Positions 19,939 to 44,525 are shown, numbered from the stretch's first letter. The stretch: DNA of 64,000 nt from Candidatus Lokiarchaeum ossiferum (GCA_025839675.1 CP104013.1:3233121-3297120); one strand, 5' to 3'. Translations and numbers: made by a program. The notes: generated by a model not told the origin, from the sequence alone.

Positions 19939-20043
19939 TCGTTAAAATGAAATTATCAGATGAAAATGCCTCCTTAATAGATTTAATTCCCTAAAACCGT
20001 CAATAAAACCATCTGTAAAATATGCAGTCAAAATAAATGAAAG

Positions 20044-20094
20044 AGACCATTTCCGACAAGGCTGAAGATGTCTCAGATAATGGTGAAGATTTTT
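20044..20094 (+). pseudogene. Decayed duplicate of the 3' end of the DUF47/PhoU-like gene
   Basis: The stretch atttccgacaaggctgaagatgtctcagataatggtgaag (20047..) matches atttccgacaaagtagaagatgtctccgattatattgaag (18937..). The fragment translates to TISDKAEDVSDNGEDF*, versus the intact gene's ETISDKVEDVSDYIEVL. Confidence 0.45.
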
Positions 20095-20202
20095 AAACTG
20101 CTATAAGGTAATAACAGAGAATAATAAGAATGCAACAAAAAACTGAATCTGATCTAGTGAATCCTTATTATCAAAGCTCATCTAATGTATTCATATTTTT
20201 CA

Positions 20203-23200
20203 TTATTTTTTTCCATTCAAAATTTTCCAGAGATTTTTATAATCTTCTCCTTTCATTTTACTTTTTTTCTTGGGATCTATCCACTTAGAAGATTCTAGAT
20301 CACTTAACCAATTTACTACCTCGTATGAATTAACATCATATATTTTTTTATTGCTCTTACAATATATTTTACCTATTCTATTTGCAATAGTTCGCGGTAC
20401 ATTATTAATTCTCATCAGTATTCCTTCGTCAGTATTCACACCATAGTATATCATTGCTGGTAAATTGCTAAGTTTTCTTTGCTCATCGATAGACATCAAC
20501 TGCCTATCTTTATCATTATAGGTTAACTTTTGAATTGAGGATAAACCCCAAGTTGATAAATTAATAATCTTACTATATATTACAGAAATACATTTTGTTA
20601 TTGAATTTATATCTATACCACTGAAATGTAAATTAGAAATCTCATCAATTTTTTTACCACCTACCCAATCATTTATTATACTTGCAATATATGAGCCTTG
20701 TCGAAACTCATCAGCTTTTATAGAGTTCAAATCTTGACTAATTTCAGGAATTTTATCAATCATTATACCAACCATATCTGCTAAAACTCCACTCTCACTT
20801 GAAAAAATATGACTACTTGTCCAGTCTATCTCCTTTAGGTTTTTATCTTTTACTGATTTTAATGTCTTCTTAATTGTTTCTGGACAAAAACCTGTTAAAT
20901 CCGATAATTTTGCTATTCCTTTGTTTTTATCTAATTTCATTACATATTTTTCAACTGCTTCTAATAATACTTCTTTTTTCTCTTCCTCAAGTTGTCTATA
21001 TCCATACGTAGAATTTAAAGTAATTTCAAGATTTGAAAGAAAATTGCTTAAAGAATCAGCTTGATTATACATATGGGAAATATATTGAGCAAATGTTGAC
21101 CATTCCGGAAGGTAAGTAAAATCTTGTAATTCTTTGTTTTCGCCTAAAGCAATGAATTCATTTACCATTTTTACCAAAATGGATATTATTGCTTTGATGG
21201 ATTCATGAATAAATTTTGATGCTTTAATTTTCTCCTTATCATTTGTTACTATTATACCGACTGTACCTATAATACTTTGATATATTCGACCAACTCTACC
21301 AGTTAAATTCATGAAATCTGACGCAGGCATTGTTTTATATGGGTAAGAATAAGATGCCATGATTATGGATGAAACAGGAAAATTTATTCCTGCTACTATT
21401 GTCGTGGTTGATATGAGTATACTCAAATCATTATTTTTCATTAACCATTCCATTAAATATCTTATTTCATCTGGAAGACCAGCATGATGAATCCCAATCC
21501 CTTTTTCAAGAAGTTTTATTAATGGAAATTTTTCACTTATCTCATCACTTATATAGTTCATTACAAGAGATGTGTTCGCGGAATTTTTTTTCTTTTTAGG
21601 TAAAACTTGATAAAGCTCTTCAGCAAGCTTCCATGTACTATCTTTAGTTTTTACCGTAATTATAATATTCTCATTGTTTTTCTTCTTCTCTATGACTTTC
21701 TGAGCGATATATGAACTCAAAATATATTTTGTATTTTTATATTTTGAAAAAGGGTATTTTGAATGAGTTTCTTCACTTAATTTTATTTTACTCTTTATTT
21801 TTATCTTTTTATCGCTAGTTATTTTTGGTTCAAAATAGCTACTTACATTACGTTTTGATCCTTCAATACTATATAAACCAATTATACTCTGATTTGGTTG
21901 CCAATCCATTTGAATTTTTATTGAACGAGGGTTTTGTGGATCAAGCCATTCGGCAATCTGATGATTATTTGGGATAAAAGGTGTTAGAAGTAGAAATCTA
22001 TTTTTTGGGCAATCCCTCATTATCACAGATAAGAGTAACTCCAAGTTCAGCCCCCTTGTTTCATCTCCAATATTATGAGCTTCATCGATAATAGTTAATA
22101 CAAGATTTCTCTGTAGATTTTTCTCAATATCCTGTCTTACCAACAAACTAAATTTTTCTGGGGTTGTCACTAAAATATCAAAGAAATTTCTTTGATTGAT
22201 TAAATTATCTTCAAAAGAATCAATTTCCAAAGCCCCACTCATCTTTTCAACCTTTATTGAGAGTGGTTCAATACTTAAATCTCGTCTTAAATCATTTGTT
22301 ACTTGATTAACGAGAGTTCTTGTAGGTACAATATATGCAATCCAGCCCTTTTCTTCCGCAAATTGATTTAAAGCTTGGAGAATTCTAAACTTCGCAATTA
22401 AAGTTTTTCCACTCGAAGTTGGCAGATTAACAACAATTGCTTTGCTAACTGGGTTTAATAGTCCTTGTTCTAATAATGCAATTCTCTGAGGATACATGAA
22501 TTCATAAATTGGTTTAGAGGATTCTGGATTTGTTAGGATATTCGCATATTTTGAAAAACGTGAATTAATTCTATTTGCTGTATACCAAATTGAATTGAAA
22601 ATCATTTTTTTATATGTTAAATGGATTAACCTTTGAAGATAATTAAGATCTTGAAGTTGTCCTTTTTCACTATGAATTAGAGAATTTTTTTTATGAAACT
22701 CTAGTGTTTCGATAATATTTGGAGGTTTACCATGTGTCAAATATAAGGAAATTAATTCCGTTGATTTAGCAAGATGATATAGTGATGCTAGCTCATGCGC
22801 AGATTGGAATTTTTGATTTTCTGGCTTGTTATCAAGATAATTTCTTTCAAACTCGTGTTGATTTTTTCTGAGTTCAACTATCATATCAATTGATTTGCTT
22901 AAATCTTCCCATGTGTTTTTTTTAATTAAATAAAAAAAAGAATGAAAAATAGTATAAAATAATTTTTTATCCCATTTCTCCTCTTCATCTAAGTTAAAAA
23001 TAATTTTTGATTCATTTTTTGTTAGGTATCTTTGAATATCTTCCCATTTTTCCCCTAAATATGCGTATGAGGCAAGTTTAATAATAAATTTAATCTTTCT
23101 TAATGGTTTTTCTGGTATTGGCAATGTTTCCATTAATTTAAATTGATCAAAACATAATTTGGAGAATTTCTCTTTTTCAACATTTCTCTCATCTTTAGTT

Positions 23201-23418
23201 TCAAAAGCAAAATTCCAATTTTCTATAATGGCAAATTCATTTATAAAGATTAAGTTCTCAATTGATTTCAATTCTGATATGGAAAGTTGTTTTTGTTCAT
23301 TAAAATTATTGTAAATTTGCTTTTCTTTAATTATCTGGAACATTTTTATTTCTTCAGACTCATTTTTCAAATTTAAAATTTTAAAATTTTCAGCTTCCAT
23401 CTGGATTTTCTCCATCAT
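20203..23418 (-). CDS. SF2 DExH helicase (Ski2/Hel308-like core), HamB-like candidate
   Basis: Motif I LPTSSGKTLIA, Ia IVPTRTLVNQ, II IIDEAHNIG (DEAH), V ISTTTIVAGINFP and VI NLTGRVGR. An N-terminal region of about 330 aa and a C-terminal region of about 330 aa lack recognisable helicase motifs. The start overlaps the upstream gene's stop by 29 nt. Confidence 0.6.
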   Translation of the reverse strand: MMEKIQMEAENFKILNLKNESEEIKMFQIIKEKQIYNNFNEQKQLSISELKSIENLIFINEFAIIENWNFAFETKDERNVEKEKFSKLCFDQFKLMETLPIPEKPLRKIKFIIKLASYAYLGEKWEDIQRYLTKNESKIIFNLDEEEKWDKKLFYTIFHSFFYLIKKNTWEDLSKSIDMIVELRKNQHEFERNYLDNKPENQKFQSAHELASLYHLAKSTELISLYLTHGKPPNIIETLEFHKKNSLIHSEKGQLQDLNYLQRLIHLTYKKMIFNSIWYTANRINSRFSKYANILTNPESSKPIYEFMYPQRIALLEQGLLNPVSKAIVVNLPTSSGKTLIAKFRILQALNQFAEEKGWIAYIVPTRTLVNQVTNDLRRDLSIEPLSIKVEKMSGALEIDSFEDNLINQRNFFDILVTTPEKFSLLVRQDIEKNLQRNLVLTIIDEAHNIGDETRGLNLELLLSVIMRDCPKNRFLLLTPFIPNNHQIAEWLDPQNPRSIKIQMDWQPNQSIIGLYSIEGSKRNVSSYFEPKITSDKKIKIKSKIKLSEETHSKYPFSKYKNTKYILSSYIAQKVIEKKKNNENIIITVKTKDSTWKLAEELYQVLPKKKKNSANTSLVMNYISDEISEKFPLIKLLEKGIGIHHAGLPDEIRYLMEWLMKNNDLSILISTTTIVAGINFPVSSIIMASYSYPYKTMPASDFMNLTGRVGRIYQSIIGTVGIIVTNDKEKIKASKFIHESIKAIISILVKMVNEFIALGENKELQDFTYLPEWSTFAQYISHMYNQADSLSNFLSNLEITLNSTYGYRQLEEEKKEVLLEAVEKYVMKLDKNKGIAKLSDLTGFCPETIKKTLKSVKDKNLKEIDWTSSHIFSSESGVLADMVGIMIDKIPEISQDLNSIKADEFRQGSYIASIINDWVGGKKIDEISNLHFSGIDINSITKCISVIYSKIINLSTWGLSSIQKLTYNDKDRQLMSIDEQRKLSNLPAMIYYGVNTDEGILMRINNVPRTIANRIGKIYCKSNKKIYDVNSYEVVNWLSDLESSKWIDPKKKSKMKGEDYKNLWKILNGKK

Positions 23419-24232
23419 CCATTATTATTTGTTCTAGGCTTTTAATACTAAAAGGCAAGTAACAACCAATTAATTCAAGAACCATTTTTTTTTTTATAAT
23501 GCTATTTAATTTTTTAAATCGTTTTTCCAAATCCATTTTATTTGGATTGACATCTCTTATTAAAATTCCGACTATTTTATATCCACATTTGTCTGTTTCT
23601 AAGAAATATTTTAAAGCTCGAAAATAATTTTTTTTTAACTCATTATTAATGTTCAAATTAGTTGTTTTTATCGCTATGGTTCTAATTAAGTTATTTACAA
23701 CTTCTTTTTCCTCTATCAAATCTGTAAGCTGACCTTCCAATCCAGATTTTCCATAAACTACATTAGGAGGATATTTATCTGAAGAAGATGTTTTAACTTC
23801 ACCAAATAGAAACATAATAGATGATTTACCATGATTATGAAAGCCTACAATATCTGCACCTTGAATATTTGCATTTATATTCCTTGCATCATCTATATTG
23901 TCATAATAGAACTTGGCATTTCTTTCCTCTTCTAAAAAGCATTTTGCCAATGTTTCACCAATTTTCCAGTCTTTAGGTTTAAGATTGCTTGTAAATATAT
24001 CGGAAAGATTATTAACAGAAAAACCTGTTGAATCTAGCCCAAATTCAATCCAATTTTCTTCATGATCTTGTATAATTTCATTAGTACTTTCCACCGAAAA
24101 ATATTTTTCTTTTACGGTTGTTTTAACATAATCTAAAATATCATTCTCTTCAAATTCTACTCCAAAATATAATGAATCATTATTCTTTTCTTGATATACA
24201 ATCTTATAATTATTTAATCCATTAGTTACCAT
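23390..24232 (-). CDS. HamA-like (DUF1837-type) protein with a PD-(D/E)xK-like nuclease motif
   Basis: GADIVGF followed 17 residues later by LFGEVKT, i.e. D...(E)xK spacing. 280 aa, translationally coupled to the downstream helicase. Confidence 0.4.
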   Translation of the reverse strand: MVTNGLNNYKIVYQEKNNDSLYFGVEFEENDILDYVKTTVKEKYFSVESTNEIIQDHEENWIEFGLDSTGFSVNNLSDIFTSNLKPKDWKIGETLAKCFLEEERNAKFYYDNIDDARNINANIQGADIVGFHNHGKSSIMFLFGEVKTSSSDKYPPNVVYGKSGLEGQLTDLIEEKEVVNNLIRTIAIKTTNLNINNELKKNYFRALKYFLETDKCGYKIVGILIRDVNPNKMDLEKRFKKLNSIIKKKMVLELIGCYLPFSIKSLEQIIMDDGENPDGS

Positions 24233-24583
24233 AATAATTCCACATTTTTCTGCCTTTTCTAATAAATAATCTTAGAGTTATCTTTAATTAAAAGAACTTT
24301 TTCGTTTTTAGTAAAAAGATATTTATCTAAACTTTGAGTCAATTTAATATATATTCATATCTTGATACTTATAAACATACATGTAAGTATGAGAATTCAA
24401 CTTTTTTCTTGAAATACTGTATAATCATTTTTTATTCGGATGATTATCGATTGATTTAAGGATTCTATCTTATGAATTGTAATTGATCTGAAATTCCTGT
24501 TTTATTTTTAAAATTTGATACTAACTTAATTTAAATTTTCTATAAGATGGTAAGGCTCAATTTTGGTTTATTTTAATAAATGA

Positions 24584-24790
24584 AAAAAAAATAAGATTTA
24601 TAGTTTCCTAAATGCTCAATTTAAGAGTTTTAGCGAAGAAAAAACCTATTTGGAACAATTTAAAAAAATATTAGCAATTTCAAATAAGATCTCTCAAACA
24701 CAAATAGCAGATATGATGAATATATCTGAAAAACAATTGTTGTCTCTGCTAATGAACTGGAGTGATACCATTTCGTTCAAAAGTAAGTGA
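24584..24790 (+). pseudogene. Start-less gene fragment encoding an HTH-like C-terminus
   Basis: An open frame with no initiator runs from the stop codon at 24581-24583 to the stop at 24788-24790. It reads ...EEKTYLEQFKKILAISNKISQTQIADMMNISEKQLLSLLMNWSD... and contains the 39-bp repeat. Confidence 0.3.
24635..24673. repeat. 39-bp perfect direct repeat, left copy (gaagaaaaaacctatttggaacaatttaaaaaaatatta)
   Basis: Identical to 29135..29173, exactly 4500 bp away. Confidence 0.9.
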
Positions 24791-24889
24791 AAGAAAATTT
24801 TTTCAATATATTTTGAAAGGAAGGATGGCAAGATGAATTTCAACTCTCACTTCGAAAATTATTTATAGGTATTCATTAGATACTCTCCC

Positions 24890-25759
24890 ATGAAACCCAT
24901 TAAAAAAATATGGGGAATTGCATTTCTCGTACTGGGGATTGCTTCTGGAATCCCATTGGGAGAGTGCGAGGTAACCGAAGTTCCTTTGATTGCTGACACA
25001 TTTATTTCCATATCTAGCTCCTCTGGAACGGATGTTATTGCCAACTATGGCCTTTCCGAATATTTATACATAGGAGATGGATTTAACGGAGTGAGTATCA
25101 CTGCCTTACGCTTTGGTTTTTCAGGCATTAGCACCCAAGATTTGAAGTTCTCTTTTTCTGCGAAGTGCACTGTTTATGGGGATCATACTCGGAAAGTGAA
25201 GGTGTTTCAAATCCAAGATGTGTCTTGGGATGAAATTAATGTTACAGGAATCGAGAACCCTTGGGATCTTGTGGATTTATGGACAGCTAATGAAACTCAA
25301 GCAAATTTGACCTCACTTGTGGTGGGGGGAAGTACGGATTCTTTAGAATTTAATTTCACCACTGCTTTTCGCGGGGAATTAACTTTGATCCTCTGCACAG
25401 ATCCATTAGATACGAGCTGGATCACATTGAATGCTAAGGAGAATGAATATTCTTGGATGTCCCCTGCAAGCATCACCTATGAAGCATCGGCATCTACATC
25501 AACAACTTCAAGTAGTTCCCCAAATGGTTCTTCAGATGATGATTTCTCCTGGAGTGTTTTATTAGTCCCTGCTGTGATTATAGGAGGGGTGGTTCTGATT
25601 GTAAAGCTAGGAAAGAAAAAAACTGTTTCTGCCCCGAAGGCGCGCAATTTTCCCTCAAGCCCAACAGCTGCAACCTATTCAAGTAAGACGTGTATCCATT
25701 GCGGGAAATTTCTCGAAGGGACCAGTAGATTTTGTAAATATTGCGGGAAAGAATCTTAA
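24890..25759 (+). CDS. Type-I membrane/secreted protein with a C-terminal cytoplasmic zinc ribbon
   Basis: Signal peptide, Ser/Thr-rich stalk, TM helix LLVPAVIIGGVVLIV, then CIHCGKF...FCKYCGK. Confidence 0.45.
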   Translation: MKPIKKIWGIAFLVLGIASGIPLGECEVTEVPLIADTFISISSSSGTDVIANYGLSEYLYIGDGFNGVSITALRFGFSGISTQDLKFSFSAKCTVYGDHTRKVKVFQIQDVSWDEINVTGIENPWDLVDLWTANETQANLTSLVVGGSTDSLEFNFTTAFRGELTLILCTDPLDTSWITLNAKENEYSWMSPASITYEASASTSTTSSSSPNGSSDDDFSWSVLLVPAVIIGGVVLIVKLGKKKTVSAPKARNFPSSPTAATYSSKTCIHCGKFLEGTSRFCKYCGKES

Positions 25760-25854
25760 ACCCCTTTTTTATCAAAAGAAAAACTTAATCAATTTGCCCA
25801 AAAATATCAAAACAAGTACTCAGATAAAAATGCAAATTTAGAGAGTGATAACCT

Positions 25855-26928
25855 ATGAACATCTTCGAACAATATATTCAGTTTTATACCATGCATCAAA
25901 CTTGTGAACCCTTGGGATTGAACATTTGTCGCCAGTTCAGTAAATTCAGACCAGAAACCATATATCCGTTTCTAGAAGACAGTATCAAATTGTTCATCCA
26001 AATGACTCGAGATTCTAAAGAAAATTTGGTCCGATTCCGCAAATTATACAACACGTTTACTAAAAAAAATAAAATTAATGATTTAATCTATAATAATGAC
26101 TTATTACGGGCGATCTCCGAAGACATCAAATATCACCACACTCAAGTGGGCAAGATTCTTAACGCAGATATTGATTTATCCAAAGAAATGAAATATGTCG
26201 GTGTTTCAGATGATGAAATATCGATCAAAGTTAAAAAAATGCAATCCTTAGTAGAAAAAACCATACAAATGGGGAAACAAGGAGATCAAATCCCTGCAGA
26301 ACAGAATAAAAAATTCAAGGAATTAGTTTTCGAGGCCCGAGAAGATCCCCTTCATATTGAGAGAGATGTGGATCAGGTTATGCAAGACATTAAGAATCGC
26401 TATGAAAGTTTTCGGTATATTATTGGTTTTTATTTGGCTGTGTTTGATACCATCGATTCCAAATTCAAAAAAAATATTAATAAATGCTATTTCAACCCCA
26501 AACTTTCGGGATTTAGTAATATGTATCGGTATCCTGATAAATACAAATATAGTAAGTATAATCCGAGACGTGAATTACCGTGTTTAAGAACATATTTAAG
26601 AAATCCGCATAATCCCTATCCAAATATTGAACAAATTTTCAATTGGGTGTATCACAAGCAAAAAGTCAAGATGTTTCGTTTAACTGAAGCCCATAATATG
26701 CGAGATGTCAAGCAAGATCGATTGGATGAAAAGTTGTATGCAATCTATACTGGAAAAACTTTCAAGTATATTCATTTTGAGGAGATCTATACCATTCAAA
26801 ATGATCTGAGCGTGCTTTCTCAACTCATAAATTGGAATATCTTGATGGTGGGGTTGAAAATGAATTTGAGAGCGTTACATAAAGCTATTTTTGGGGTTGA
26901 TGTTTTGAAGAAAGAAAAAAAGGACTAA
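25855..26928 (+). CDS. Hypothetical protein
   Basis: Complete 357-aa ORF with no recognisable motif. Confidence 0.35.
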   Translation: MNIFEQYIQFYTMHQTCEPLGLNICRQFSKFRPETIYPFLEDSIKLFIQMTRDSKENLVRFRKLYNTFTKKNKINDLIYNNDLLRAISEDIKYHHTQVGKILNADIDLSKEMKYVGVSDDEISIKVKKMQSLVEKTIQMGKQGDQIPAEQNKKFKELVFEAREDPLHIERDVDQVMQDIKNRYESFRYIIGFYLAVFDTIDSKFKKNINKCYFNPKLSGFSNMYRYPDKYKYSKYNPRRELPCLRTYLRNPHNPYPNIEQIFNWVYHKQKVKMFRLTEAHNMRDVKQDRLDEKLYAIYTGKTFKYIHFEEIYTIQNDLSVLSQLINWNILMVGLKMNLRALHKAIFGVDVLKKEKKD

Positions 26929-26968
26929 ATTCTCTTTGCTATAGTTCATCGGAACCACAATCAATAGT

Positions 26969-27844
26969 TTATTTGATATTCTTAATGAACGATGAAGAGA
27001 AGTCTAAGATTATTCCTATGAGTGCTCCGATAATAAAAACGATGACTTCCAACCAGATTTTCTCCCATAATGATCGTATTTTTCCTGAGGGATTCACCTT
27101 TCGATGAGGCGGGAATTGATCAAAAAAAGGATCTCGGGAATATTTTTTTGGTAAATCATAATCATGGAGAACTTGATTTCCGAGTGTTTTATCCATGTCA
27201 AAACTAAACACACGAGACCGTCTACGGATTCCATGGGCCCCAATATAGATATCCTTCCATTTATCATCTGGTTGCTTCTCTTCTTTACCCTCTGGTTCAA
27301 TTTGAACCTGAAGTAAATGCGCAGTTTTTGATATCAGGAACCCTATTTGCTTGAGGTAACCGGAGGGAATTTTAATATATGGCGCCCATTTACGATTATT
27401 AACATATGGATTTATATCAGCGGCATCGAATCGTGCTTGAATAGTTTTTGGGAGATAGTTGGCTATAAAGAGATCATGCCCAAATTTTTGCTTCAACCTC
27501 CACTCTTTCTTCTTTTTTCGTGGAAACTTTGAAACCATATTCCCTTTTACTTTGGTGCTATCAGCATTAGTGTCAATCAATAAAATACGTTTATCAGGCG
27601 AATCTGTTGGAAAAAGTGTTTGATCCGATTTGTCGTCCAATTTTATTTGGATATTTGATTTCATATCTTGAATTTCAAACTCAGAAAACGATTTAGATTC
27701 CTCTTCTGTAATTTGCAGTTTTGATGATTGGGGTATAGTAAATTTTAGTTGGTTATTTTTATCACAAATCTTTAAATCCCACTTTGAAAAATTGAAGATC
27801 CAAAAATGAGAGGCATTCGTTTTATTTTCGTTTTTTCTTAACAT
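26969..27844 (-). CDS. Hypothetical protein with a C-terminal TM helix
   Basis: 291-aa ORF with a C-terminal hydrophobic segment IWLEVIVFIIGALIGIIL. Confidence 0.35.
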   Translation of the reverse strand: MLRKNENKTNASHFWIFNFSKWDLKICDKNNQLKFTIPQSSKLQITEEESKSFSEFEIQDMKSNIQIKLDDKSDQTLFPTDSPDKRILLIDTNADSTKVKGNMVSKFPRKKKKEWRLKQKFGHDLFIANYLPKTIQARFDAADINPYVNNRKWAPYIKIPSGYLKQIGFLISKTAHLLQVQIEPEGKEEKQPDDKWKDIYIGAHGIRRRSRVFSFDMDKTLGNQVLHDYDLPKKYSRDPFFDQFPPHRKVNPSGKIRSLWEKIWLEVIVFIIGALIGIILDFSSSFIKNIK

Positions 27845-28149
27845 CAGAAAGTCTCCTTGCAGTATAAATTTGGATATTTAGTTATTTTTGAGATATAGTA
27901 TTTAAACTTTTATTATTAGGGAGATAAGAAAAGAACTCGGGAGAGGGACCAATATCATTTCTGGCTATAATTTAATAGACAAGACACAATGCAAAATGAA
28001 ATCATGATAGGTTTTAAGGGGTATTACCCCCGTAACATCTGTATTTGCCCTTCATGAGGGCAAACCATATAGACATAAACTTTAACCAGCGATATGAGTA
28101 AATTTATCATTATACTAAAATTAACATGAGAATTATTCCTATATCTTCA

Positions 28150-28407
28150 TACTCTCTCTAATAATATTTTATCAAAAACTCCGAATTTTTTACTGCTGAA
28201 TATATCCAATATCATTTTCATTAATTTCTTTATTATACTTGTATTTGGAGTGAACATACCATGATAGTCCCGTTTGAGCGAGATCCCAAAAAAAAATCTC
28301 GCATTAGGCGATACTAAGGCCCAGTATCCCTCATCTGGCCAATTGGCATATATTTTAGCTTCAGTATCAGCATCATTTTTTTTTCCAAATATTCATTATT
28401 CACCTAG
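28150..28407 (-). CDS. Possible unannotated small ORF (GTG start?) or gene fragment
   Basis: Minus-strand frame open for about 85 codons (VNNEYLEKKNDADTEAKIYANWPDEGYWALVSPNARFFFGISLKRDYHGMFTPNTSIIKK...ILLERV*). No ATG at the 5' end, and the composition is non-random. Confidence 0.2.
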
Positions 28408-28506
28408 AAGAATAGGGCTGTTTACACTTTAAAACGGGAAAGGCTAAAATTTTTTATGGGAAGTAGAAGATAACTTCAAAAGGAGTTAACCGAGCAAATA
28501 GGAAAA

Positions 28507-29127
28507 ATGACAATGGAAAAAAAATTCGGAGAAGTATTCGGGAAATATAGAATTACAGACAAAGAATTTTGGTTTAAAACCAATGAGAAGGAATATCGAT
28601 TTCCCGTAAAGGATGTGAGGATTGAAATTCAAAGACCCAAATATTCAGGACCCTTCTATTTTGTTCAATATAACGACAAATCCATTGATTTGGAGGATCT
28701 GAGGACTTATTGCTCAGAAATAAACAAAAGTCTTTTGAAATATCATGTATTCATGAAAAAAAAGAAGTATATCCGGATCATCAAAGAATTAGTCTCTGAA
28801 TTAAAAGAAGGGGATGAAGTAAAACTCGAGGAAGCCCTTAGTGTGGTTAAGGAAGAATATAAAATTTTACATGCAAAGGAGATTCGGGGAGTGTCCAAAA
28901 AAGTTTGGTCTAAACATCCTCAACGAACAATCTTAATTCCCGATTCCTTTCTTGAAAATTTCTTTCGTTTAATAGGGGAACATATTTCAGGGTTTGAATT
29001 CGTGAGGTTGAAAAAAACTATTCGCATGAAGTCTGATATCTCCACTTCCCTCGATCAGATCGATGTGTTATTTGCAGACTGGGATTCGAATCCCCAAAAA
29101 TATAAAAAAAGAACACTGGTTGATTGA
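28507..29127 (+). CDS. Hypothetical protein, paralog of the C-terminal half of 32104..32856
   Basis: GFEFVRLKKTIRMKSDISTSLDQIDVLFADWD aligns with GFQYIRLKESIRYSKEILPLSANLAQLDNLFIEWD. Confidence 0.4.
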   Translation: MTMEKKFGEVFGKYRITDKEFWFKTNEKEYRFPVKDVRIEIQRPKYSGPFYFVQYNDKSIDLEDLRTYCSEINKSLLKYHVFMKKKKYIRIIKELVSELKEGDEVKLEEALSVVKEEYKILHAKEIRGVSKKVWSKHPQRTILIPDSFLENFFRLIGEHISGFEFVRLKKTIRMKSDISTSLDQIDVLFADWDSNPQKYKKRTLVD

Positions 29128-29134
29128 AACGGAA

Positions 29135-29173
29135 GAAGAAAAAACCTATTTGGAACAATTTAAAAAAATATTA
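29135..29173. repeat. 39-bp perfect direct repeat, right copy
   Basis: Identical to 24635..24673. Confidence 0.9.
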
Positions 29174-31322
29174 ATCTCTTTCTGTTTTTCCCACAATCTC
29201 TCTTCTAATTCTTCATATATATCTTTACTCAGTTTTAAGTTCAACTTCTCCGACACATTCTTGTTGTGCCGAAGGGTTTAAAAAAAATAAGTAAGTCCCA
29301 TTATTTATTTTTGATGTAAATAGAAAAGTTCAATATCTAAAGATTAAAGTGAAATTAAGTGAATTAACTTAGCTGAAAAGTAAACATTAAAATAGGGAGG
29401 TTTCCTTATTATTGTTTCGGGTAATTTTAGCATAGTTTTAAATAGGCGTCGTGTTTTTAGTAACTTGTAAAAATGATTTCTATAGATTATGTCCAAATCA
29501 CGTAAATTCTGGAAGAGATGTGCCTCATGGGTGAAGGAGAACATCTTTGATTTGATATTTTTATCTCTTGTAATCTACGAACTCTTCATTAAGTAGGTTT
29601 TCTAAGAGATTAGTCACCCACCATTTTTTTTCTCTTTAGACTAATTTATTGGTCCACCAACATCATTGCTTTTAAATAATTATTCTCTCTGGAAGTGTAC
29701 GATGACTCCTAAAAGAGTGAAAGCTGGTGCTGGTCCTTTTTCCTTTGAATGGGAAAATTGGATGAAAGATGATAATGCAGATATCAAACGAATTAAAAGA
29801 ATCGTTGATTCGTGGATTATCGCAATTGATATGGGTGGAGCAAGTATAACTGATGCAGAAATGACAAGTTTTTTTAAAATAATGCGTAGTTATGGACATC
29901 TTGTGAAATTGAAGGATGATAAGGATTACTTAGAAAAATACAAAAAACTAAATGATTACTATAAAGAAAATTTCGAGTTCGGTGCGATTACCGTACGTAG
30001 AAGGCGGTAGTTATTTAAGATATTGTTTGTTTCGCCTTCCAGCAATTACTATACCATTTTTACAGTAATTACAAATACACTGCTTATGGTATTCATGTCC
30101 CACTGTAGTATAACATCCACAGGCATCACATATTACAGGGTCATCATAGTGTTTTTCTTCAATCATATTTCCATAGGCAAAGGGGAAAACATATGCAAGG
30201 AAATGACAGCGTTTACAGAGGCGTTCAAAATAAATGGAGATTTCATTGTTGTATCAGATATTGAAGAATTTACAAAAAATTTAGACTCGATTGAGGAAAT
30301 TGTTCGATTGGTTTCGAATTGATTCTAAAAGTACTAAAAAAGAAAATGAACATCCAAATGTTGCCAAGATCTTTCAAACTCCTTCAATCGATCTAAATGT
30401 AATTCTTTTCAAGTGGTTCTATTACATGACTCAACATGATTGGAAAAATGTGATTAAATTTTGTAGAAATTTGACATACAAAAATATTATTCTAAATTTC
30501 TTTGAGGGAAATTCACACAATCCAGGGATTGCTACTGGTGCTGATAGAGTTCGGTTTTATTCTGGAACTTTCAATTTTATTTGTAACATGAAAAATTCCA
30601 CAACTTTGCTACCAAATTCTATGGGGAGAGAGATTGACGAGGTGAGAGATATCAAAAGCTTCAATATTGTACTACAAGAAAAATTAAGTTAATTTAAGGA
30701 AATTTATTCTCCTTTGCATCTTGTCGATCTAATTAAAGAAATTGAAGAATTTCGGGACAATTTGATTCTAAATAACTATCACTATGCTTTTATACCCGAA
30801 AATCGTTCTAAATTAGAAACAATTTGCAAATTAATCGATTTTACATGCGTAATAAAAAAAAATAGAATAAATATTGATCAAGGAAGAAGTCATATACATA
30901 TCTCTAGAAATGAATTGAATGAATTTGATCTTCATTTAATTTTCTTTTCAAGAGAAATAAACGTTGTATGTGTGAGAAAATTAAATTTAGACACTGGAAA
31001 CTATTTGATCATAATGCAGCTTCTGCTCCTTCTCAAAAAATAATCGCTTCCTTTTGTAATTTGATGATAAATAAAATCAAGGAACTTTTTTTTTCTGATT
31101 AAGGAAATACAAAATAATAAAGAGCAAAATTATTAATTTAAAATGTCTGTAGATAAAAAACGTGATAATTTATGAACATCTTTGAACAATAAATTCAGTT
31201 CTATACTATATTTAACTATGATCATAAGTCTGAATTCATAAACTAGGACATTTTTGGGAGAATTACAAAAAAATTAGCTGAAATAATCTAAACAAGACAG
31301 AACAAGATGAAAAAAGAATTTT

Positions 31323-31541
31323 TTAAAAAGTATTATTATTGACTATCATAAAAAAAATGAAAATGACAATTATTATCACACAAATGCTAGTGTATGTCGA
31401 CTTAATTCCAGGCGAGGATGAATCGTCACTATCTTCATCTGGGCCATGTTCCCAAAAATCAAAAAGATCACCGTCATCATGATCAACGTCATTATCAAAA
31501 CTATCTGGGATACCATCCCCATCTCTGTCCCAACTTGTCAT
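31323..31541 (-). CDS. Small acidic Ca-binding-motif protein with a C-terminal TM anchor, possibly a remnant of a surface-protein gene
   Basis: DRDGDGIPDSFDNDVDHDDGD (DxDxDG-type) followed by ICVIIIVIFIFFMIV. Confidence 0.25.
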   Translation of the reverse strand: MTSWDRDGDGIPDSFDNDVDHDDGDLFDFWEHGPDEDSDDSSSPGIKSTYTSICVIIIVIFIFFMIVNNNTF

Positions 31542-31693
31542 TACTTCTTTCCCTTGTGGTATTTTGATTTAATTAAAATATAAATTAGTATTACATTTCA
31601 GTATATACTAGGTGGACTAAATGGCCATCGATCAAATCGCTTATTGTGATTTAGATACTTAATATTCCAATTCCTTTTTTTTAGTCATTATGT

Positions 31694-31792
31694 TTATTCC
31701 AAGGAAAAGACCAATGTGGTAGGATGATGAGCCAAAGGTTCCAGTATGGAACAATGCTCAAGGTAGAAGGGGAAATAGGAGGGATTGGGCAT
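31694..31792 (-). pseudogene. 5' stub of the PIN-like cassette gene (MPNPSYFPFYLEHCSILEPLAHHPTT...*)
   Basis: The first 25 residues align with MPPFAEFPFCLENCHVLEPLPHHPKV of 36374..37102. The frame stops after 32 codons. Confidence 0.4.
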
Positions 31793-31870
31793 GAATCACC
31801 ACTTTATTTTAAAGGATTATAAAAAGATCACCATTGTGACAGTTATTCTTCCATTTTGAGATCCTTAAAT
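31787..31870. promoter_or_regulatory. Conserved divergent promoter/leader module, copy A (partial)
   Basis: gggcatgaatca...attataaaaagatcaccattgtgacag, the same block as at 37098, 41036 and 45001. Confidence 0.5.
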
Positions 31871-32103
31871 GAGCAACAGTTATTCTTCCATTTTGAGCAT
31901 CATTATATTGAGAGTCAGTTGACTCGTACCATCCCACCTTCGGCTATTTTATCGATCACTTCGCAAGGGATTGAGTTTTTGCAAATTCATGAAATTAATT
32001 TTGATCGAATTAGGGACTTTTTTATCCTAATTGATAAAGAAAAATCTGACTGTCGATTATTAATTCACAACTTTTATTTTCTTCTTCAACAGAGTTAATT
32101 TTC

Positions 32104-32856
32104 ATGGGAAAAAATGCACTCTTTGATGCTCTTCACACCTACTGGAAAACAGAAAGTAAAAAATATAACGGAAATGTACAAAGTAGGCAAAGTTTTGAAG
32201 ATTATCAAAAAGAAACTTTTTCTCGAATTTTAGGAGTTAACATGTTGCAAGAAAACATTTTTACGTCCGATGGAGTAAATCTTGCATGGGAAAAACGGAG
32301 TTCTAAAGAGTTGATGGAATATCAGTATCGATATCAGCCCATCCAAATTAAGAAAGGGCCAAATGTTAAAATATGGCAAGACCAACTGACTTTTTCTGGA
32401 GAAAGAGGAACTCATACCCATCCTTTACTGGGTTTAAATAAAATCCCCGAGATAATTCAGAATGGTGCATTTGATCGTATTCCAGATCATTATATGAAGA
32501 AAATTCAAAACTTTCTAACACCCAAATTATTAGCTGCTGAAAAACAAAAACTAATCAAGTTAATAAGTGAATTATTTGGAGAACTCATGCCGGGCGATGA
32601 AATTCCGCTCGTTCAAGCTGAAAAAATCATAAGACAAGAATTTTCATTCAATACTCTGACATCCAAGGATATTCTTGGATTTTTAAAAGAAATCGGAACA
32701 AAACTCAATGGATTTCAGTATATACGATTGAAAGAATCTATTCGGTATAGCAAAGAAATCCTTCCATTATCAGCCAATCTTGCTCAATTGGATAATTTGT
32801 TCATTGAATGGGATCAAGCAATACAAACTAACAATCACAATAAGAAGAAGAAATAG
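32104..32856 (+). CDS. Hypothetical protein (paralog family with 28507..29127)
   Basis: See the paralog alignment above. Sits directly upstream of the stand-alone peptidase-domain gene. Confidence 0.4.
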   Translation: MGKNALFDALHTYWKTESKKYNGNVQSRQSFEDYQKETFSRILGVNMLQENIFTSDGVNLAWEKRSSKELMEYQYRYQPIQIKKGPNVKIWQDQLTFSGERGTHTHPLLGLNKIPEIIQNGAFDRIPDHYMKKIQNFLTPKLLAAEKQKLIKLISELFGELMPGDEIPLVQAEKIIRQEFSFNTLTSKDILGFLKEIGTKLNGFQYIRLKESIRYSKEILPLSANLAQLDNLFIEWDQAIQTNNHNKKKK

Positions 32857-32861
32857 TTGAA

Positions 32862-33530
32862 TTGGAAACATTCACCCCAAGTTGGGAAAATTATTACTAT
32901 CGATTTTTCGATGGCTTAGGATATGATGTTGTTCATGTATATACAGGATATACTCGAAATCAGTTTTATAATGAACTTTATCAATGGACACCTCTCATTC
33001 AATGGGATGATGAATTGTTTATTATGATCCAAGGGCACGGGCTTGTGATGGATGATGAAGAAGAGACACCTTTACCGTATTTTACTCTCTATGATGGAGA
33101 TACTTTATATAATGGAGATAATGGTGAAATTTCAGGACAAGACTTCATAAATCGATTGATGTTATTTAGTGCTTTGAGGAAATGTGTATTTTTTGATACT
33201 TGCTATGCTGGAAAAGTGTTAGAAAGTTTTAATTCCGAAATTACCAAAGTTTTTCAAACTACTGATGCTACTCATGCAGCTGTGATGACATGCACTTATT
33301 ATGATGAAGCAATCGAAAATGCAAAATGGGAGAAAAGAAATACTCGGTTGGCAATTTTTTTTTTCCAAACTTTGAGTGCAACAACTTTAAGTGAGGATGG
33401 AATCTTCAATTATTTTCAGTTAGAACTAGCTTTAGAATCGTTATTACCATGGAATGATTTTTGTTACCAAGGAGGCACAATTCTGAATCCAGGTTGGAAT
33501 TTTTTGACTAAATATGGAATGTTATCATAA
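32862..33530 (+). CDS. Stand-alone caspase-like (clan CD-type His/Cys dyad) peptidase-domain protein
   Basis: A hydrophobic strand plus QGHG (LFIMIQGHG), then about 57 aa later a hydrophobic strand plus DxCxAG (KCVFFDTCYAG). About 80% identical to the C-terminal 220 aa of 41250..44498. Confidence 0.5.
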   Translation: METFTPSWENYYYRFFDGLGYDVVHVYTGYTRNQFYNELYQWTPLIQWDDELFIMIQGHGLVMDDEEETPLPYFTLYDGDTLYNGDNGEISGQDFINRLMLFSALRKCVFFDTCYAGKVLESFNSEITKVFQTTDATHAAVMTCTYYDEAIENAKWEKRNTRLAIFFFQTLSATTLSEDGIFNYFQLELALESLLPWNDFCYQGGTILNPGWNFLTKYGMLS

Positions 33531-33558
33531 TATTTGGGATATTAAACAATATTTCCCT

Positions 33559-33891
33559 CTATTTTTTTTTTTTAATAGCATTTTTTAATTCCCCAAAGGA
33601 GGTTTCTTTTCGCTTGTTATCATACCAACGTAAACTCCCAGTAAATCTTGACCCATGGTACCAAGTATCTAATAACTTTTTTCCTCCCAGTAAGTGGTCC
33701 CATGATTTTAGTATTTTTAATTCTTTTACGGTTCTTTTAGCAATGCATGAGTTACAGAAATAGATAGGAAGCGAAAAATAAGGGGTGTTTTCCGATGTTT
33801 GTTCGTTTACCGTGATAAATGGGTCCATATCAGTATACCATCTATGGCAAAAGTAGCATAGATTTTTGGAAGGTTCCTCATTTTTGACCAT
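33559..33891 (-). CDS. Small CxxC...CxxC zinc-binding protein. The start is probably the internal Met (MVKNEEPSKN), not the track's 33984.
   Basis: Aligns with paralog 44526..44864 from MMAKNKVPSKNLCYICQQW. The track's N-terminal 31 aa overlap the decayed PIN-like stub. Confidence 0.4.
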   Translation of the reverse strand: MVKNEEPSKNLCYFCHRWYTDMDPFITVNEQTSENTPYFSLPIYFCNSCIAKRTVKELKILKSWDHLLGGKKLLDTWYHGSRFTGSLRWYDNKRKETSFGELKNAIKKKK

Positions 33892-33959
33892 CAATACTAA
33901 TAAGATGGGTTGACAATTGAATTTTTTGGAGAATTTAGGATGCTCAAATAGGCATGAAC

Positions 33960-34187
33960 CTAAAAGATGTTGTTCATGAAACACCCGTAGTGTTGTTCAT
34001 CGAGAGCAAACTTCGCCGACGGGACCGAAAGGGTAAAAAGTTCCTGGAATGTGGATGGGAGGACATTCAATCCATGAAGAAAATCCACGGTGGTCGGATG
34101 GTGATCTAAGGATTCCAGCATGTGACAATTCTCGCTGTCCGTTAAATGTTCTGTGGGGCAGGAGCCACCGTGATCTACCTGTGGCAA
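33960..34187 (-). pseudogene. Decayed N-terminal fragment of the PIN-like cassette gene
   Basis: DSENCHMLESLDHHPTTVDFLHGLNVLPSTFQELFTLSVPSAKFALDEQHYG aligns with LENCHVLEPLPHHPKVVDFLRGLNVPPRILPDLYTLSVPAAKLALYEQHYG. The stretch is GC-rich like the intact gene and is truncated at 75 aa. Confidence 0.45.
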
Positions 34188-34563
34188 GCCGATTTCTTCA
34201 TGTAGTGGTATCCGACGATGCCGATCTTGATCGAAAGAAATCGTTTCCCTATCATCGCATCAAGAGTCCTTCTTCTCTTCAAGCGAGAAATACTATGAAA
34301 GCGGTTTCATTACCCCGATCGACCCTTATTGGTTTTTTTGAATCCGTCCACAATCGATCAATCAAACTTCCGTTTCCCTTATCGGTAAGCTATCTTCCGT
34401 GATTGCAATAATGCCATCATGGGAGCAGTTTTTTTTATTTTATAATTCAATGTATTTTTTATACAGAAAATTCTGGTTAATTGTATTTTTGATTCAGTTA
34501 ATTTAAATATTTAGTGTATAATATAGTCATAAGAAAGGGGTTGAAGGGAATCTCCCCCTTTTT

Positions 34564-35442
34564 TTGAAGGTATACAAAATGAACGAAAACCGATTGAAAA
34601 CTAAAAATACAATAACGCCTTTGCTAGGCTTTGTATTTTTATTTCTCCTGCTTGCAGGACAATTTTCCGAAGGAAATGCCGCCTATCAACCTCCGGTGGA
34701 ACCTCCTGAAGTAAATTTGAATGCGCCGTCTACCGTCATCGCGGGAACCTCCTTTACTGCCTCTATCTATATCCAAAATTATCCCGGAAGCAGTTATGGG
34801 TATGTTCAATGTTATGAAAATGGTGTATGGCAAAATGTCAAACGAGTTACGATCTCCTCGTCCCATGTGAGTGTGAGTCTTCCGACGAGCCCATACTATG
34901 AAAGATCAGTTTTATATCGCGTAAGGTATCGGGCTCCTTCTCGTTGGATTTACAGTAATACGGATAGCGTCAAAATTAATTTTGGTAGAACAATGTATCT
35001 TGAAGGACGAACTTGGGAAAAACAAATTCGTGATCAAAGCGGATTAAATGATTATTATGCGAGTGAATCCCATCACTACACTTGGGCTGCAAATACCAAT
35101 GAAATTTCGGTGAGTACTACTGGGATAAATTATAACAGGTTTATTGGAATGTCCACAACTTTTGTCGCTCAAAGCACGAGTATTCGAATTGACTTCGATT
35201 CCAAAGAATCGACGAACAAATATAGCGGAGTAGGCCAATATTCAATTATTTATGATCTCGATTGGGAAGTTGTTGGTTGGCTCTACTTTAGCGATTCCAC
35301 TTCCTATACTCATCACACTCACTTGTTTACAGAATTAGATGTAGGACAATCCTACTACTATTTTCATGCAAGTCGCGATAATTCCGTTTATCAAGGGTTC
35401 ACAATTACTTCCAAGAATTTTGTGTTGGATTTAACCCCTTAA
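34564..35442 (+). CDS. Secreted beta-rich protein, tandem paralog 1
   Basis: Signal peptide. AAYQPPVEPPEVNLNA...IQNYPGSSYG...RWIYSNTDSV...FVAQSTSI is shared with the next gene. Confidence 0.45.
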   Translation: MKVYKMNENRLKTKNTITPLLGFVFLFLLLAGQFSEGNAAYQPPVEPPEVNLNAPSTVIAGTSFTASIYIQNYPGSSYGYVQCYENGVWQNVKRVTISSSHVSVSLPTSPYYERSVLYRVRYRAPSRWIYSNTDSVKINFGRTMYLEGRTWEKQIRDQSGLNDYYASESHHYTWAANTNEISVSTTGINYNRFIGMSTTFVAQSTSIRIDFDSKESTNKYSGVGQYSIIYDLDWEVVGWLYFSDSTSYTHHTHLFTELDVGQSYYYFHASRDNSVYQGFTITSKNFVLDLTP

Positions 35443-35446
35443 ATAA

Positions 35447-36349
35447 TTGGAGGAACAAACAATGACAAAAACAAATTTAAGCAAATCAAAAACGATGATT
35501 CGTGTCCTAGGAACTTTAGTGGTGTTCATGACTCTATTTGGGGAAATGTCGGGGGTTTTAGCTGCCTACCAACCTCCCGAAGAACCTCCGGAAGTGAATT
35601 TTAATGCTGCATCCTCCGTCGAAGCGGGAAAGACTTTTTCCGCAACCGTAGCAATTCAGAATTATCCTGGAAGTAGTTATGGAAATGTTCAACGATATGA
35701 GAGTGGGACCTGGCGAAATGTAAAAAGTGTGAGTTTTTCATCCTCCTACATGACTATCAGTGGAATCCCAAGTCATACTTTTCAAGGATCCGCTTCCTAT
35801 CGATTAAAATATCGTCATAATGGACGATGGATTTATAGTAATTCTGACAGTGTGAATGCCTATTTCGGAAGAATTATGTATGTGGATGGAATTGCTTGGA
35901 CCAAAGAAGTACGGGATCTTTGGGGTTGTTTTGATTATTATGCGACTGATGCTTCCAAGGTAGATTGGACCGTGTCGGGGAATGAAATACGAGTCGAACA
36001 AGTCTCCTATTCTGGTAGAACTTTTGGAATGTCCACGAATTTTGTTGCCCAAAGTACAAGTGTCAAAATCAGCGTTGATGAGCGAAGTACCTGCTATCCA
36101 GGGTATGCATTGACCCCGGCGGTTCGTGTATATAAATCAAATTGGGGCTATCCCATCGTTAACAATGAACATCCTATTATCGATAAAGAATATTTCACCC
36201 AGTCAAGTAATTACGTCTACTCAGAAAAAATCCTTTCAGGTTTAACAGTAGGTGAAACATACAATATCTATCTTTGTTATCAAGATACTCATGGGTACGT
36301 GGATTTTACCATGTATTTCAAGAACATAGTGATTGACACTACGCCCTAA
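35447..36349 (+). CDS. Secreted beta-rich protein, tandem paralog 2
   Basis: AAYQPPEEPPEVNFNA...IQNYPGSSYG...RWIYSNSDSV...FVAQSTSV. Confidence 0.45.
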   Translation: MEEQTMTKTNLSKSKTMIRVLGTLVVFMTLFGEMSGVLAAYQPPEEPPEVNFNAASSVEAGKTFSATVAIQNYPGSSYGNVQRYESGTWRNVKSVSFSSSYMTISGIPSHTFQGSASYRLKYRHNGRWIYSNSDSVNAYFGRIMYVDGIAWTKEVRDLWGCFDYYATDASKVDWTVSGNEIRVEQVSYSGRTFGMSTNFVAQSTSVKISVDERSTCYPGYALTPAVRVYKSNWGYPIVNNEHPIIDKEYFTQSSNYVYSEKILSGLTVGETYNIYLCYQDTHGYVDFTMYFKNIVIDTTP

Positions 36350-36373
36350 GAGAAATTCTTACTTTCCCTTTTT

Positions 36374-37102
36374 TTAATAATTTTCGACCATGCGTTCCCA
36401 CTTCGTTTTCCTAGGATATTTGGATTGTATTAGAGTCTTTTGGCGCGCTTTTCGTTTCCGACGTGCCTTTCCACTTTCAAAACGACCAAAATCTTCCACA
36501 AACACGGCGATGTCCGTTTCCTTTACCTGATAGGAAGGAGTTTTAAGCGAGGACGGAAGAGCCGATCGATCAAATTTCCGATGATAGACCCGCCCCATCT
36601 CCTCTAAAATATTCGCTGAGAGAATGAAGGTCACACTCGGATTGGATGTAAACATCTGTCGAATCCGCTCCCGTTGTGATCGCTGGTGATCACAAAAATG
36701 CAGCAGGATATTGGAATCGATCAAAACCATTGCATCCGCGGGTAAGTTGGCAATGTCTTCGGGCCAATAGGCTTCATAGTCCAAAAATTCCCGGAGGTTG
36801 ATCAACAGATGATGATCCAAAGACGCCACCCCCCATTGGTTTTCGGCGGCCAGATAGGCCACGATCCAATCATCCACCCCAAAGGCCAAGGGACGATAAG
36901 GATGTTGTTCTTGAATAACCCCGTAATGTTGCTCATAGAGGGCTAACTTTGCGGCAGGCACCGAGAGCGTATAGAGGTCAGGAAGAATTCGTGGAGGTAC
37001 ATTTAAACCTCGGAGAAAATCTACAACCTTCGGATGATGGGGGAGAGGCTCCAACACATGACAATTTTCGAGACAGAAGGGAAACTCGGCAAAGGGGGGC
37101 AT
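36374..37102 (-). CDS. PIN-like nuclease-domain protein with an unknown N-terminal domain and a basic tail. This is the intact copy of the cassette gene.
   Basis: The C-terminal half has the PIN-like acidic quartet: VLIDSNILL (D), ILEEMG (E), ETDIAVF (D), VEDFGRF (D). The tail is RRKRKARQK. The gene looks markedly GC-richer by eye than its surroundings. Confidence 0.35.
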   Translation of the reverse strand: MPPFAEFPFCLENCHVLEPLPHHPKVVDFLRGLNVPPRILPDLYTLSVPAAKLALYEQHYGVIQEQHPYRPLAFGVDDWIVAYLAAENQWGVASLDHHLLINLREFLDYEAYWPEDIANLPADAMVLIDSNILLHFCDHQRSQRERIRQMFTSNPSVTFILSANILEEMGRVYHRKFDRSALPSSLKTPSYQVKETDIAVFVEDFGRFESGKARRKRKARQKTLIQSKYPRKTKWERMVENY

Positions 37103-37270
37103 GAATCATCTTTTGGTTTCTAAGAAACTATAAAAAGATCACGATTGTGACAGAATTGAGATTTGCGAGTGGTTTTTATAGATCAAAAGCAGTAGTATGG
37201 ATGTAACCATTTGAATACAAAAGGATGAAATGACAAAAGTGGCATTCAAACTTTAGTCCACATCTCTTTA
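37098..37270. promoter_or_regulatory. Conserved divergent promoter/leader module, copy B
   Basis: A TATA-like ctataaaaag (37128) abuts the dyad tcacgattgtga. An oppositely oriented ggtttttatag (37171) follows. The conserved leader ends about 85 bp before the ATG at 37356. Confidence 0.5.
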
Positions 37271-37355
37271 AGACCTAAGGATAATTTTCAGAAAATGTAT
37301 TCGAAACTGGAAACATGAAATTACTAATAACGCAAAACCAAAAAGTGAAAAAAAT

Positions 37356-40841: not shown

Positions 40842-41035
40842 ATTTTTATTGCTTTTTTTTTCTCAGGCTATAAGTATATTTTTTTTCTCATTTTTGATAA
40901 TATTTTCTTGATTTAAACGGAGAAAATATGAGTTATGAAATTTTGATGAAAATCAAGAAATTCTTTTCATTATGAAAACCCGAAAAATAAGAAGAAAAAC
41001 ATCTTTCCGAAACATCCATTGATATCTCATCAAGC

Positions 41036-41190
41036 ACCTATAAAAAGATCACGATTGTGATAGTTGTGCAAATTGCGAGTGGTTTTTATAGATCAAAAGC
41101 AGTATTATGGATGTAACCATTTGAATACAAAAGGATAAATGGACAAAAGTGAGAAACCGATTTTTGTTCCACATCTCCTTAATAGTAATT
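41036..41190. promoter_or_regulatory. Conserved promoter/leader module, copy C (lacks the minus-gene stub)
   Basis: cctataaaaagatcacgattgtgatag...ggtttttatagatcaaaagcagtattatggatgtaaccatttgaatacaaaaggat. Confidence 0.5.
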
Positions 41191-44498: not shown

Positions 44499-44525
44499 AT
44501 TTCGGGATAGTGAGTAGTTTTGCTC

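Follow-up and report, generated by a model that had tools for sequence, protein, structure and literature searches.

A perfect 39-bp direct repeat brackets a block of orphan genes beside a decayed, similarly ordered cassette in Candidatus Lokiarchaeum ossiferum

In a 64-kb stretch of the chromosome of Candidatus Lokiarchaeum ossiferum strain B35 (CP104013), referred to throughout as the window, two identical copies of a 39-bp sequence, here named R, bracket a 4461-bp block, E1 (24674..29134). E1 holds four genes that are practically without homologues among billions of proteins, together with an unannotated small open reading frame (ORF) that resembles a helix-turn-helix (HTH) protein. Directly across the second copy of R lies E2 (29174..32856, plus strand), an older and heavily diverged cassette with an E1-like gene order. 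The explanation that we favour, tentatively and at somewhat less than even confidence, is that R represents the recombination joint between these two tandem related cassettes, within an island specific to strain B35.

A perfect, sharp-edged repeat at a break in base composition

R reads GAAGAAAAAACCTATTTGGAACAATTTAAAAAAATATTA and occurs as two perfect copies on the plus strand, R-left (24635..24673; GC 18%) and R-right (29135..29173). Their start-to-start spacing is 4500 bp, a round figure to which we attach no meaning. An exact search therefore upheld the initial annotation, which had described perfect 39-bp repeats at this distance. No third copy was found in the window at up to 3 mismatches, and none of 100 dinucleotide shuffles of the window gave a match, which rules out a chance origin of R. 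Two further claims made at the outset also held: both copies translate in the same frame to one peptide, EEKTYLEQFKKIL, and R-right stands just after a stop codon, beginning 7 nt past that of the 206-aa gene at 28507-29127.

The edges of R are abrupt. At an offset of 4500 bp, identity was 31% over the 100 nt upstream of R and 21% over the 117 nt downstream, with a background of 27.5%, and gapped local alignment of the flanks revealed no significant similarity. Since flank identity lies at background and the gapped alignment was null, R is a short, perfect and sharp-edged repeat; the same background identity rules out that it is the remnant of a longer, decayed duplication. No tRNA and no Rfam family overlaps R, and R with 20 nt of flanking sequence showed no folding advantage over shuffles (z = +1.1 and +1.3 for the two copies). 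The core of R had no match in the genome, metagenome and viral collections that were scanned, a negative that carries little weight for the genome collection: a flanking protein found no match among its contigs either, so that L. ossiferum is seemingly not part of it.

The closed genome of strain B35 is a Flye assembly of Nanopore reads no shorter than 1 kb, with polishing by Pilon (PMC9834061). Illumina contigs built at k=31 (SRR22273277) match the window at 100% and break exactly inside R: the left contig runs to 24664, a 4521-bp contig covers 24644-29164 and the right contig starts at 29144. All four R junction k-mers were found in independent Illumina unitigs. With the four junctions present in raw reads as well as in the long-read assembly, the repeat-flanked arrangement is real.

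The two copies of R also coincide with a change in base composition. E1 has a G+C content of 0.348, and G+C content at third codon positions (GC3) is 0.32-0.37 in its four genes versus 0.16-0.28 in seven flanking island genes (Mann-Whitney p=0.011), so that E1 lies above both flanks. The low-GC3 flanking genes are HamA and HamB on the left and five genes on the E2 side, while the GC3 of E1 resembles that of core genes. Because GC3 differs, the history of E1 is not that of either neighbour, and the shift falls at the two R copies.

Related layout of E1 and E2 and a proposed crossover within R

Three strong anchors recur in E1 and E2, with order and orientation kept: R (100%), the head of the gene p357 (87.5% over 48 nt) and the gene pair p206/p250 (E=1e-13). 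Further, weaker tblastx matches chain in the same order between the two cassettes. In E1, p357 (NEF87_002763; 25855..26928, plus strand) is intact; in E2 it is represented by a relic at 31119..31209 (plus strand) that comprises the upstream region and first 13 codons of p357 (70% over 91 nt, 87.5% over 48 nt), with a stop at codon 7 and an abrupt end of homology. The third anchor is formed by paralogues that occupy the right ends of their cassettes, p206 in E1 (NEF87_002765; 28507..29127, plus strand; 206 aa, or 204 aa in the annotation) and p250 in E2 (NEF87_002770; 32104..32856, plus strand; 250 aa), which are 30% identical across the C-terminal part (tblastn E=1e-13). Divergence between E1 and E2 is thus very uneven, passing from 100% through about 87% to about 30% (amino acid), and for that reason a mosaic of related elements is suggested rather than a single in-place duplication followed by drift.

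The cassettes also resemble each other immediately downstream of R. R-left lies within the HTH-like ORF (24584..24790, plus strand), which is open over 68 codons and has no ATG; a TTG at 24650, inside R, is a possible start and would give a product of 46 aa, the first helix being encoded by R. R-right is followed by a decayed HTH-like tail at 29174-29281 (plus strand), which sits 12 nt closer to R than the intact tail does in E1. The R-frame peptide tails, NISEKQLLSLLMNWSDT and NSSYISLLSFKFNFSDT, are weakly alike (3 of 5000 shuffles score as high). The ORF had initially been annotated as a start-less HTH gene fragment; the missing ATG was confirmed, the TTG within R means that it is not wholly start-less, and the HTH assignment is weak (Pfam HTH_23, E=0.09; PHROG repressor families, E about 0.03). 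Homologues of this ORF were not found in a large protein database, the 46-aa TTG-start product is not on record as a called gene in the assembly index, and the locus tags of B35 pass straight from HamA (002761) to p289 (002762), with no tag for it.

On the reading that we favour, the two cassettes would have a common layout, in which an R head opens a small HTH-like ORF and is followed by a p357-type gene and a winged-helix gene of the p206/p250 type. E2 would be the old, decayed resident, and E1 the intact and compositionally different partner. A circular or circularised E1 with a 39-bp head identical to that of the resident E2 would have undergone a single Campbell-type crossover inside the shared 39 bp, which would set E1 to the left of E2 and produce two identical joints (X-R-E1 and E1-R-E2) whose edges mark the limits of the sequence common to the partners. 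Such a crossover could be homologous (RadA-type) or could be carried out by a recombinase encoded elsewhere, and were the present R copies to cross over, 4500 bp would be freed as a circle and a single R would stay behind in the chromosome. Our inferences on this reading are the circular form of the intermediate, the direction in which the event ran and any present-day excision.

The crossover is suggested by the form of R, because a crossover within a short shared block would be expected to leave a perfect 39-bp stretch flanked by background identity. The context agrees with such a joint: the surrounding 29.4 kb are strain-variable, and other repeat-bracketed modules are found in the window. 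The initial annotation had offered two possibilities for the bracketed segment, an att-like substrate for insertion or excision and a recombination scar of the cassette family. The order of genes in E2 and the GC3 contrast agree with the cassette-family part, and the mobility part gained no such backing, as neither a recombinase nor a hairpin was found.

Several observations weigh against a recombination joint. First, R exists in just two copies, and the far end of E2 carries no third perfect one. A weak R-like stretch at 32844..32872 (plus strand; 21 of 29 nt), located at the stop codon of p250 and the TTG start of the 222-aa ORF p222, occupies the same position after p250 as R does after p206; it is not significant, and as a third copy of R it was retained as a hint only, an equally good match being present at 47058 inside an unrelated gene. 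No hairpin or inverted repeat was found in R. Second, recombinases were sought with Pfam, PHROGs, PADLOC and NCBIfam in the segment; elsewhere in the 64-kb window, the Pfam search took in ORFs of at least 90 aa that were scanned or had precomputed Pfam matches. In agreement with the initial annotation, neither an integrase nor a transposase was recognised in E1, E2 or the ORFs covered by this search. A replication protein or other mobile-element hallmark was not found in E1, E2 or the window, and E1 showed neither iterons nor an origin. Third, with R at 39 bp exceeding k-1 (30), the k=31 graph is equally compatible with an integrated E1 and with an episome beside an empty site, in other words a 4500-bp circle and a chromosome that carries R once; for the same reason the short-read contigs were discarded as uninformative evidence on empty-site or circle junctions. 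Fourth, the sole related genome compared, a second L. ossiferum genome (CP163304) taken as strain B36, is without the whole 29.4-kb island, so that it has neither a single-R allele nor the same arrangement, and hence no empty site to inspect. Finally, the likeness of the HTH tails is invisible at the DNA level, and three strong anchors would fall in the same order and orientation by chance with a probability of about 0.04, which makes their arrangement supportive, not proof. All the cassette genes are orphans, so homology cannot tell which junctions are ancestral.

The gene content of E1 was correctly described at the start: a membrane protein of 289 aa that matches a Zn-ribbon weakly, a 357-aa protein, a 291-aa protein on the minus strand and the 206-aa paralogue of the 250-aa protein. 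p289 (NEF87_002762; 24890..25759, plus strand) carries a linker rich in Ser and Thr and, at its C-terminus, a Zn-ribbon that Pfam matches weakly; its hydrophobic N-terminal and internal segments, read by eye from the sequence, look like a signal or transmembrane segment and a transmembrane helix, respectively. The sole database match of the orphan p357 is itself. An AlphaFold2 model of this protein, in which a hidden recombinase fold was sought, was unusable (predicted local distance difference test score, pLDDT, of 34), and a very divergent fold is possible. The second orphan, p291 (NEF87_002764; 26969..27844, minus strand), has an apparently hydrophobic C-terminal segment; among 1.84 billion representative proteins it matched only itself at E<1e-10, and one weak partial match (E=1.3e-4) was to a 3067-aa protein. 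For the C-terminal half of p206 the model shows a winged helix (pLDDT about 90), although this model had no neighbour in the PDB at E<0.001. One foreign homologue of p206 was identified, a metagenomic JGI protein with 42% identity whose contig is without an R-like sequence, and a metagenome scan with the p206 family alignment yielded nothing that was confirmed. Viral contigs contained no relative of any of the four E1 proteins, and searches of the four against PHROGs, PADLOC and NCBIfam gave no meaningful match. We considered that 28514 might mark a relic, in the +1 frame, of the N-terminus of p250, and rejected this because p206 in its own frame aligns with the N-terminus of the metagenomic homologue.

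E2 contains three small ORFs on the plus strand, at 29702-30010 (102 aa), 30300-30692 and 30714-31043. Within the 102-aa ORF, 29900-29950 encodes the peptide HLVKLKDDKDYLEKYKKL, which is similar (tblastn E=0.06) to HWLIETEEEKTYLEQFKKI, the peptide read in the R frame at R-right; the likeness may reflect chance in Lys/Glu-rich sequence or another relic.

Logan contigs of SRR32148620-23 (L005, L006, L010 and L011) match the window at 100% over 9940-24259, 24867-27862 and 24971-27845, and their ends at 9940, 24259, 24867 and 27862 lie 18-30 nt upstream of start codons that face outward. These contigs have the look of transcriptome assemblies, which would mean that HamAB, p289-p357 and p291 are transcribed. 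The p289 transcript would in that case start at or before 24867, and R would not be included in it.

Alternative explanations and known systems

A possible but rather doubtful alternative is that a 4500-bp unit starting from R was duplicated in tandem and its second copy deleted down to 39 bp, or that a short stretch was copied during break repair, R-right being junk. Such an origin requires neither a recombinase nor a special site, the structure amounts to 1.009 copies of a 4500-bp unit, and the window is rich in segmental duplications and gene fragments. The deletion, however, would have to end exactly at the start of a diverged cassette of the same order, with a decayed tail at a near-equal distance from R, and the duplication would have to begin at the cassette head and finish 7 nt past the p206 stop. 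Moreover, the GC3 contrast of E1 with both flanks would be left unexplained.

R might instead be a functional head that has been kept identical, as a promoter, a translation start or the binding site of a regulator, for instance the HTH or winged-helix protein, in which case the bracketing would be a trivial effect of the tandem arrangement. R does stand at the head of both cassettes, with a possible TTG start, TTTAAAAAAATATTA, its 3′ half, is similar to the TATA box of archaea, and conserved heads before diverged gene bodies recur in the window, including blocks of 150-200 bp at 78-85% identity ahead of the three large surface-protein genes and of p250, and that of p357 at 87%. We nevertheless regard this explanation as unlikely, because selection would not be expected to hold 39 straight bases, synonymous sites included, beside randomised sequence. 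Unlike R, the other heads of the window match imperfectly (78-94% identity), and their edges fade; the ORF that follows R in E2 is decayed, which leaves nothing obvious to regulate; and the apparently RNA-derived contigs would place the start of the p289 transcript at or before 24867, without R.

Equally improbable in our judgement is that E1 is an active, integrase-less mini-element that excises and re-integrates at R by means of a recombinase encoded elsewhere. The perfect repeat is of the size of an attachment (att) site and present on both sides, and the short-read graph is compatible with a circle. A circle would also join p206, R and the HTH-like ORF compactly. Upstream of R-right, the frame of R is open for 24 codons from an ATG (29063..29134, plus strand), overlapping the 3′ end of p206, so that in a circular E1 the segments 29063-29134, R and 24674-24790 would hypothetically yield an ATG-initiated HTH ORF of 75 codons. 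We estimate that an open frame of that length would arise by chance in this base composition in roughly 10-15% of cases, and the 75-aa ORF across the circle junction is suggestive. There is Asgard precedent for such an element in mini-Yucahu-i of Atabeyarchaeia (PMC11529989). Against an active element, no recombinase was found among the ORFs covered in the 64 kb and no recombinase-binding architecture was seen in R, the E1 proteins have no relatives in viral contigs or PHROGs, and R was not found in the scanned genome, metagenome and viral collections. The live form in full, a 4,500-bp circle at R with the 75-aa HTH gene rebuilt downstream of the winged-helix gene and a recombinase acting in trans, is in our view a long shot. 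Scarcely credible is an assembly artefact in which a free 4.5-kb circle sharing R was wrongly threaded into the chromosome, since, although the Illumina k=31 unitigs end inside R and would fit a single-R chromosome accompanied by a 4500-bp circle just as well, a 39-bp repeat cannot mis-join a Flye assembly of Nanopore reads of at least 1 kb (PMC9834061).

We also compared E1 with the defining features of known element classes. E1 fails as a self-sufficient integrative element: it has direct repeats at both ends, but neither an integrase of its own nor a tRNA or conserved gene as target. Terminal inverted repeats and a transposase, which would mark a transposon or insertion sequence, were not found at E1, and a duplication of 39 bp far exceeds known target-site duplications. 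No foldable palindromic site of the integron attC type was found at R. E1 does show one feature of an integrase-less element in a tandem array, in that the att-like R pair flanks a block in which no recombinase was found. E2, which starts at R-right and has the gene order of E1, would be the adjacent related element at the same site, but the match at the far end of E2 (21 of 29 nt) is not significant.

In form, E1 resembles both tandem arrays of cis-mobilisable elements (CIME) and ordinary scars of Campbell-type insertion or segmental duplication. The ICESt1/CIME arrays of Streptococcus thermophilus arise by tandem accretion of integrative and cis-mobilisable elements. Like them, E1 would be an integrase-less block between identical, att-sized repeats that adjoins a decayed relative at the same site and from which excision would be possible. 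The cases differ in that no element with a cognate integrase is known for E1, whose host is an Asgard archaeon and whose genes are all orphans; in addition, R shows no architecture for recombinase binding, and conservation does not extend to the third site. Archaeal elements of the SSV and pNOB8 types encode a tyrosine integrase and are flanked by direct repeats of about 40-60 bp, and in SSV a gene lying across attP is split on integration. R is of comparable, att-like length, and the attP-spanning gene of SSV recalls the hypothetical 75-aa HTH ORF across R. E1, however, is without an integrase and has a non-tRNA target, and its putative split ORF is not a recombinase. With the scars, E1 shares a short, perfect and sharp-edged repeat, accessory genes, strain variability, proneness to deletion and no need of dedicated recombination machinery. 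Nothing essential sets it apart from them; this is the ordinary reading, of which the joint that we favour would be a specific version. Finally, mini-Yucahu-i is a 2644-bp element of Atabeyarchaeia with no listed integrase, whose integrated and circular forms coexist (Valentin-Alvarado et al. 2024, PMC11529989). It is like E1 in being small, nested in a larger integrated element and without a listed integrase, and in having an AT-rich, non-tRNA attachment sequence; it differs in that both forms are seen in reads, in its 11-bp motif (39 bp for R) and in its ParG and RuvB-like genes, of which E1 has none (PMC11529989).

The surrounding island and what the locus may mean

E1 and E2 lie in an island of 29.4 kb (19962..49409) that is present in B35 and missing at the corresponding locus of B36, a strain with 97.2% average nucleotide identity (bioRxiv preprint on strain B36). 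The B36 locus (L013) aligns with the window in three segments: 1-10953 with 9014-19961 (90.5% identity), 10982-11299 with 49426-49743 (92%) and 15550-20930 with 57595-62975 (98.9%). The heptamer ATCAGAT occurs at both edges of the island, at 19955-19961 and 49403-49409, and its counterpart in B36 is a single ATCAAAT (L013 10953-10982). For the island proteins that were checked, no B36 cluster mates were found at 90% identity or above, and B36 has no homologue of p206 or p357. Apart from E1 and E2, the island holds a Hachiman-like HamAB pair and three large surface-protein genes.

On its right side the island stops 26 nt short of the 3′ end of a tRNA-Ile(GAU) gene (49436-49541, minus strand). 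This gene encodes its CCA end, and its D-loop is interrupted by a non-canonical intron of about 30 nt. ARAGORN missed this gene and called it once 26-36 nt were removed; Rfam gives it 23.6 bits, where the gathering threshold is 29. Beyond the tRNA gene, on its right, the strain-variable stretch contains small ORFs with matches to the nuclease families PD-(D/E)XK (50125-50589, plus strand; E=2e-5) and GIY-YIG (51490-51762, minus strand; E=1e-7).

The left neighbour of E1 has the gene order of a Hachiman system, HamA followed by HamB, a DEAD/DEAH helicase. This module (20203-24232, minus strand; GC3 0.16-0.21) is not present in B36 at the locus. HamA (23390-24232, minus strand; 280 aa) matches the PADLOC model PDC-M23A at E=5e-70 and, weakly, the Pfam HamA family in precomputed matches. 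HamB (20203-23418, minus strand) is a 1071-aa protein that matches PDC-M23B at E=0 and HamB at E=2e-63.

Other duplicated sequences were observed in the window. Direct repeats of about 100 bp, 93.9% identical and 4132 bp apart (53465-53562 and 57597-57694), flank a gene for a 1208-aa Laminin_G/TSP3 protein on the minus strand; B36 has one copy (L013 15550-15651), with a different gene, of 1107 aa, to its left. A perfect 40-bp repeat (43379-43418 and 46532-46571, 3153 bp apart) lies within paralogous TSP3-repeat sequence of the large genes. Because it is embedded in sequence of 76% identity, unlike R, it is probably a gene-conversion tract. To the right of p250, the caspase-like p222 and the next minus-strand ORF (32862-33936) are a 73% copy of 43845-44907, which comprises the 3′ end of a gene for a 1082-aa surface protein and its neighbour. 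The first five codons of p222, including the TTG, do not derive from that gene, so that p222 is a chimera formed at a recombination breakpoint right after p250. Conserved non-coding heads of 100-200 bp, 71-85% identical, were found at 37062-37271, 41032-41182, 44966-45161 and 31722-31842, and also at 57450-57499 (minus strand). They precede the three tandem large surface-protein genes and, in one case, p250, and the gene bodies are far more diverged than the heads.

Candidatus L. ossiferum is among the very few cultured Asgard archaea, and to our knowledge no genetic tools exist for it. If a defined site lets a 4.5-kb block enter and leave the chromosome, R would be a candidate for an integration site or a vector backbone; were the live mini-element true, Lokiarchaeum would have in it a first small natural replicon or integrating cassette, and an obvious starting point for a genetic vector. 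If R is merely a scar, the locus is a deletion-prone 4.5-kb segment of orphan genes, and it is only with demonstrated excision that interest would rise, the host being a cultured Asgard archaeon without genetic tools. The locus illustrates how accessory DNA builds up, as an island beside tRNA-Ile in which small modules appear joined at short shared heads, and it bears on the growth of Asgard genomes through duplication and horizontal gain.

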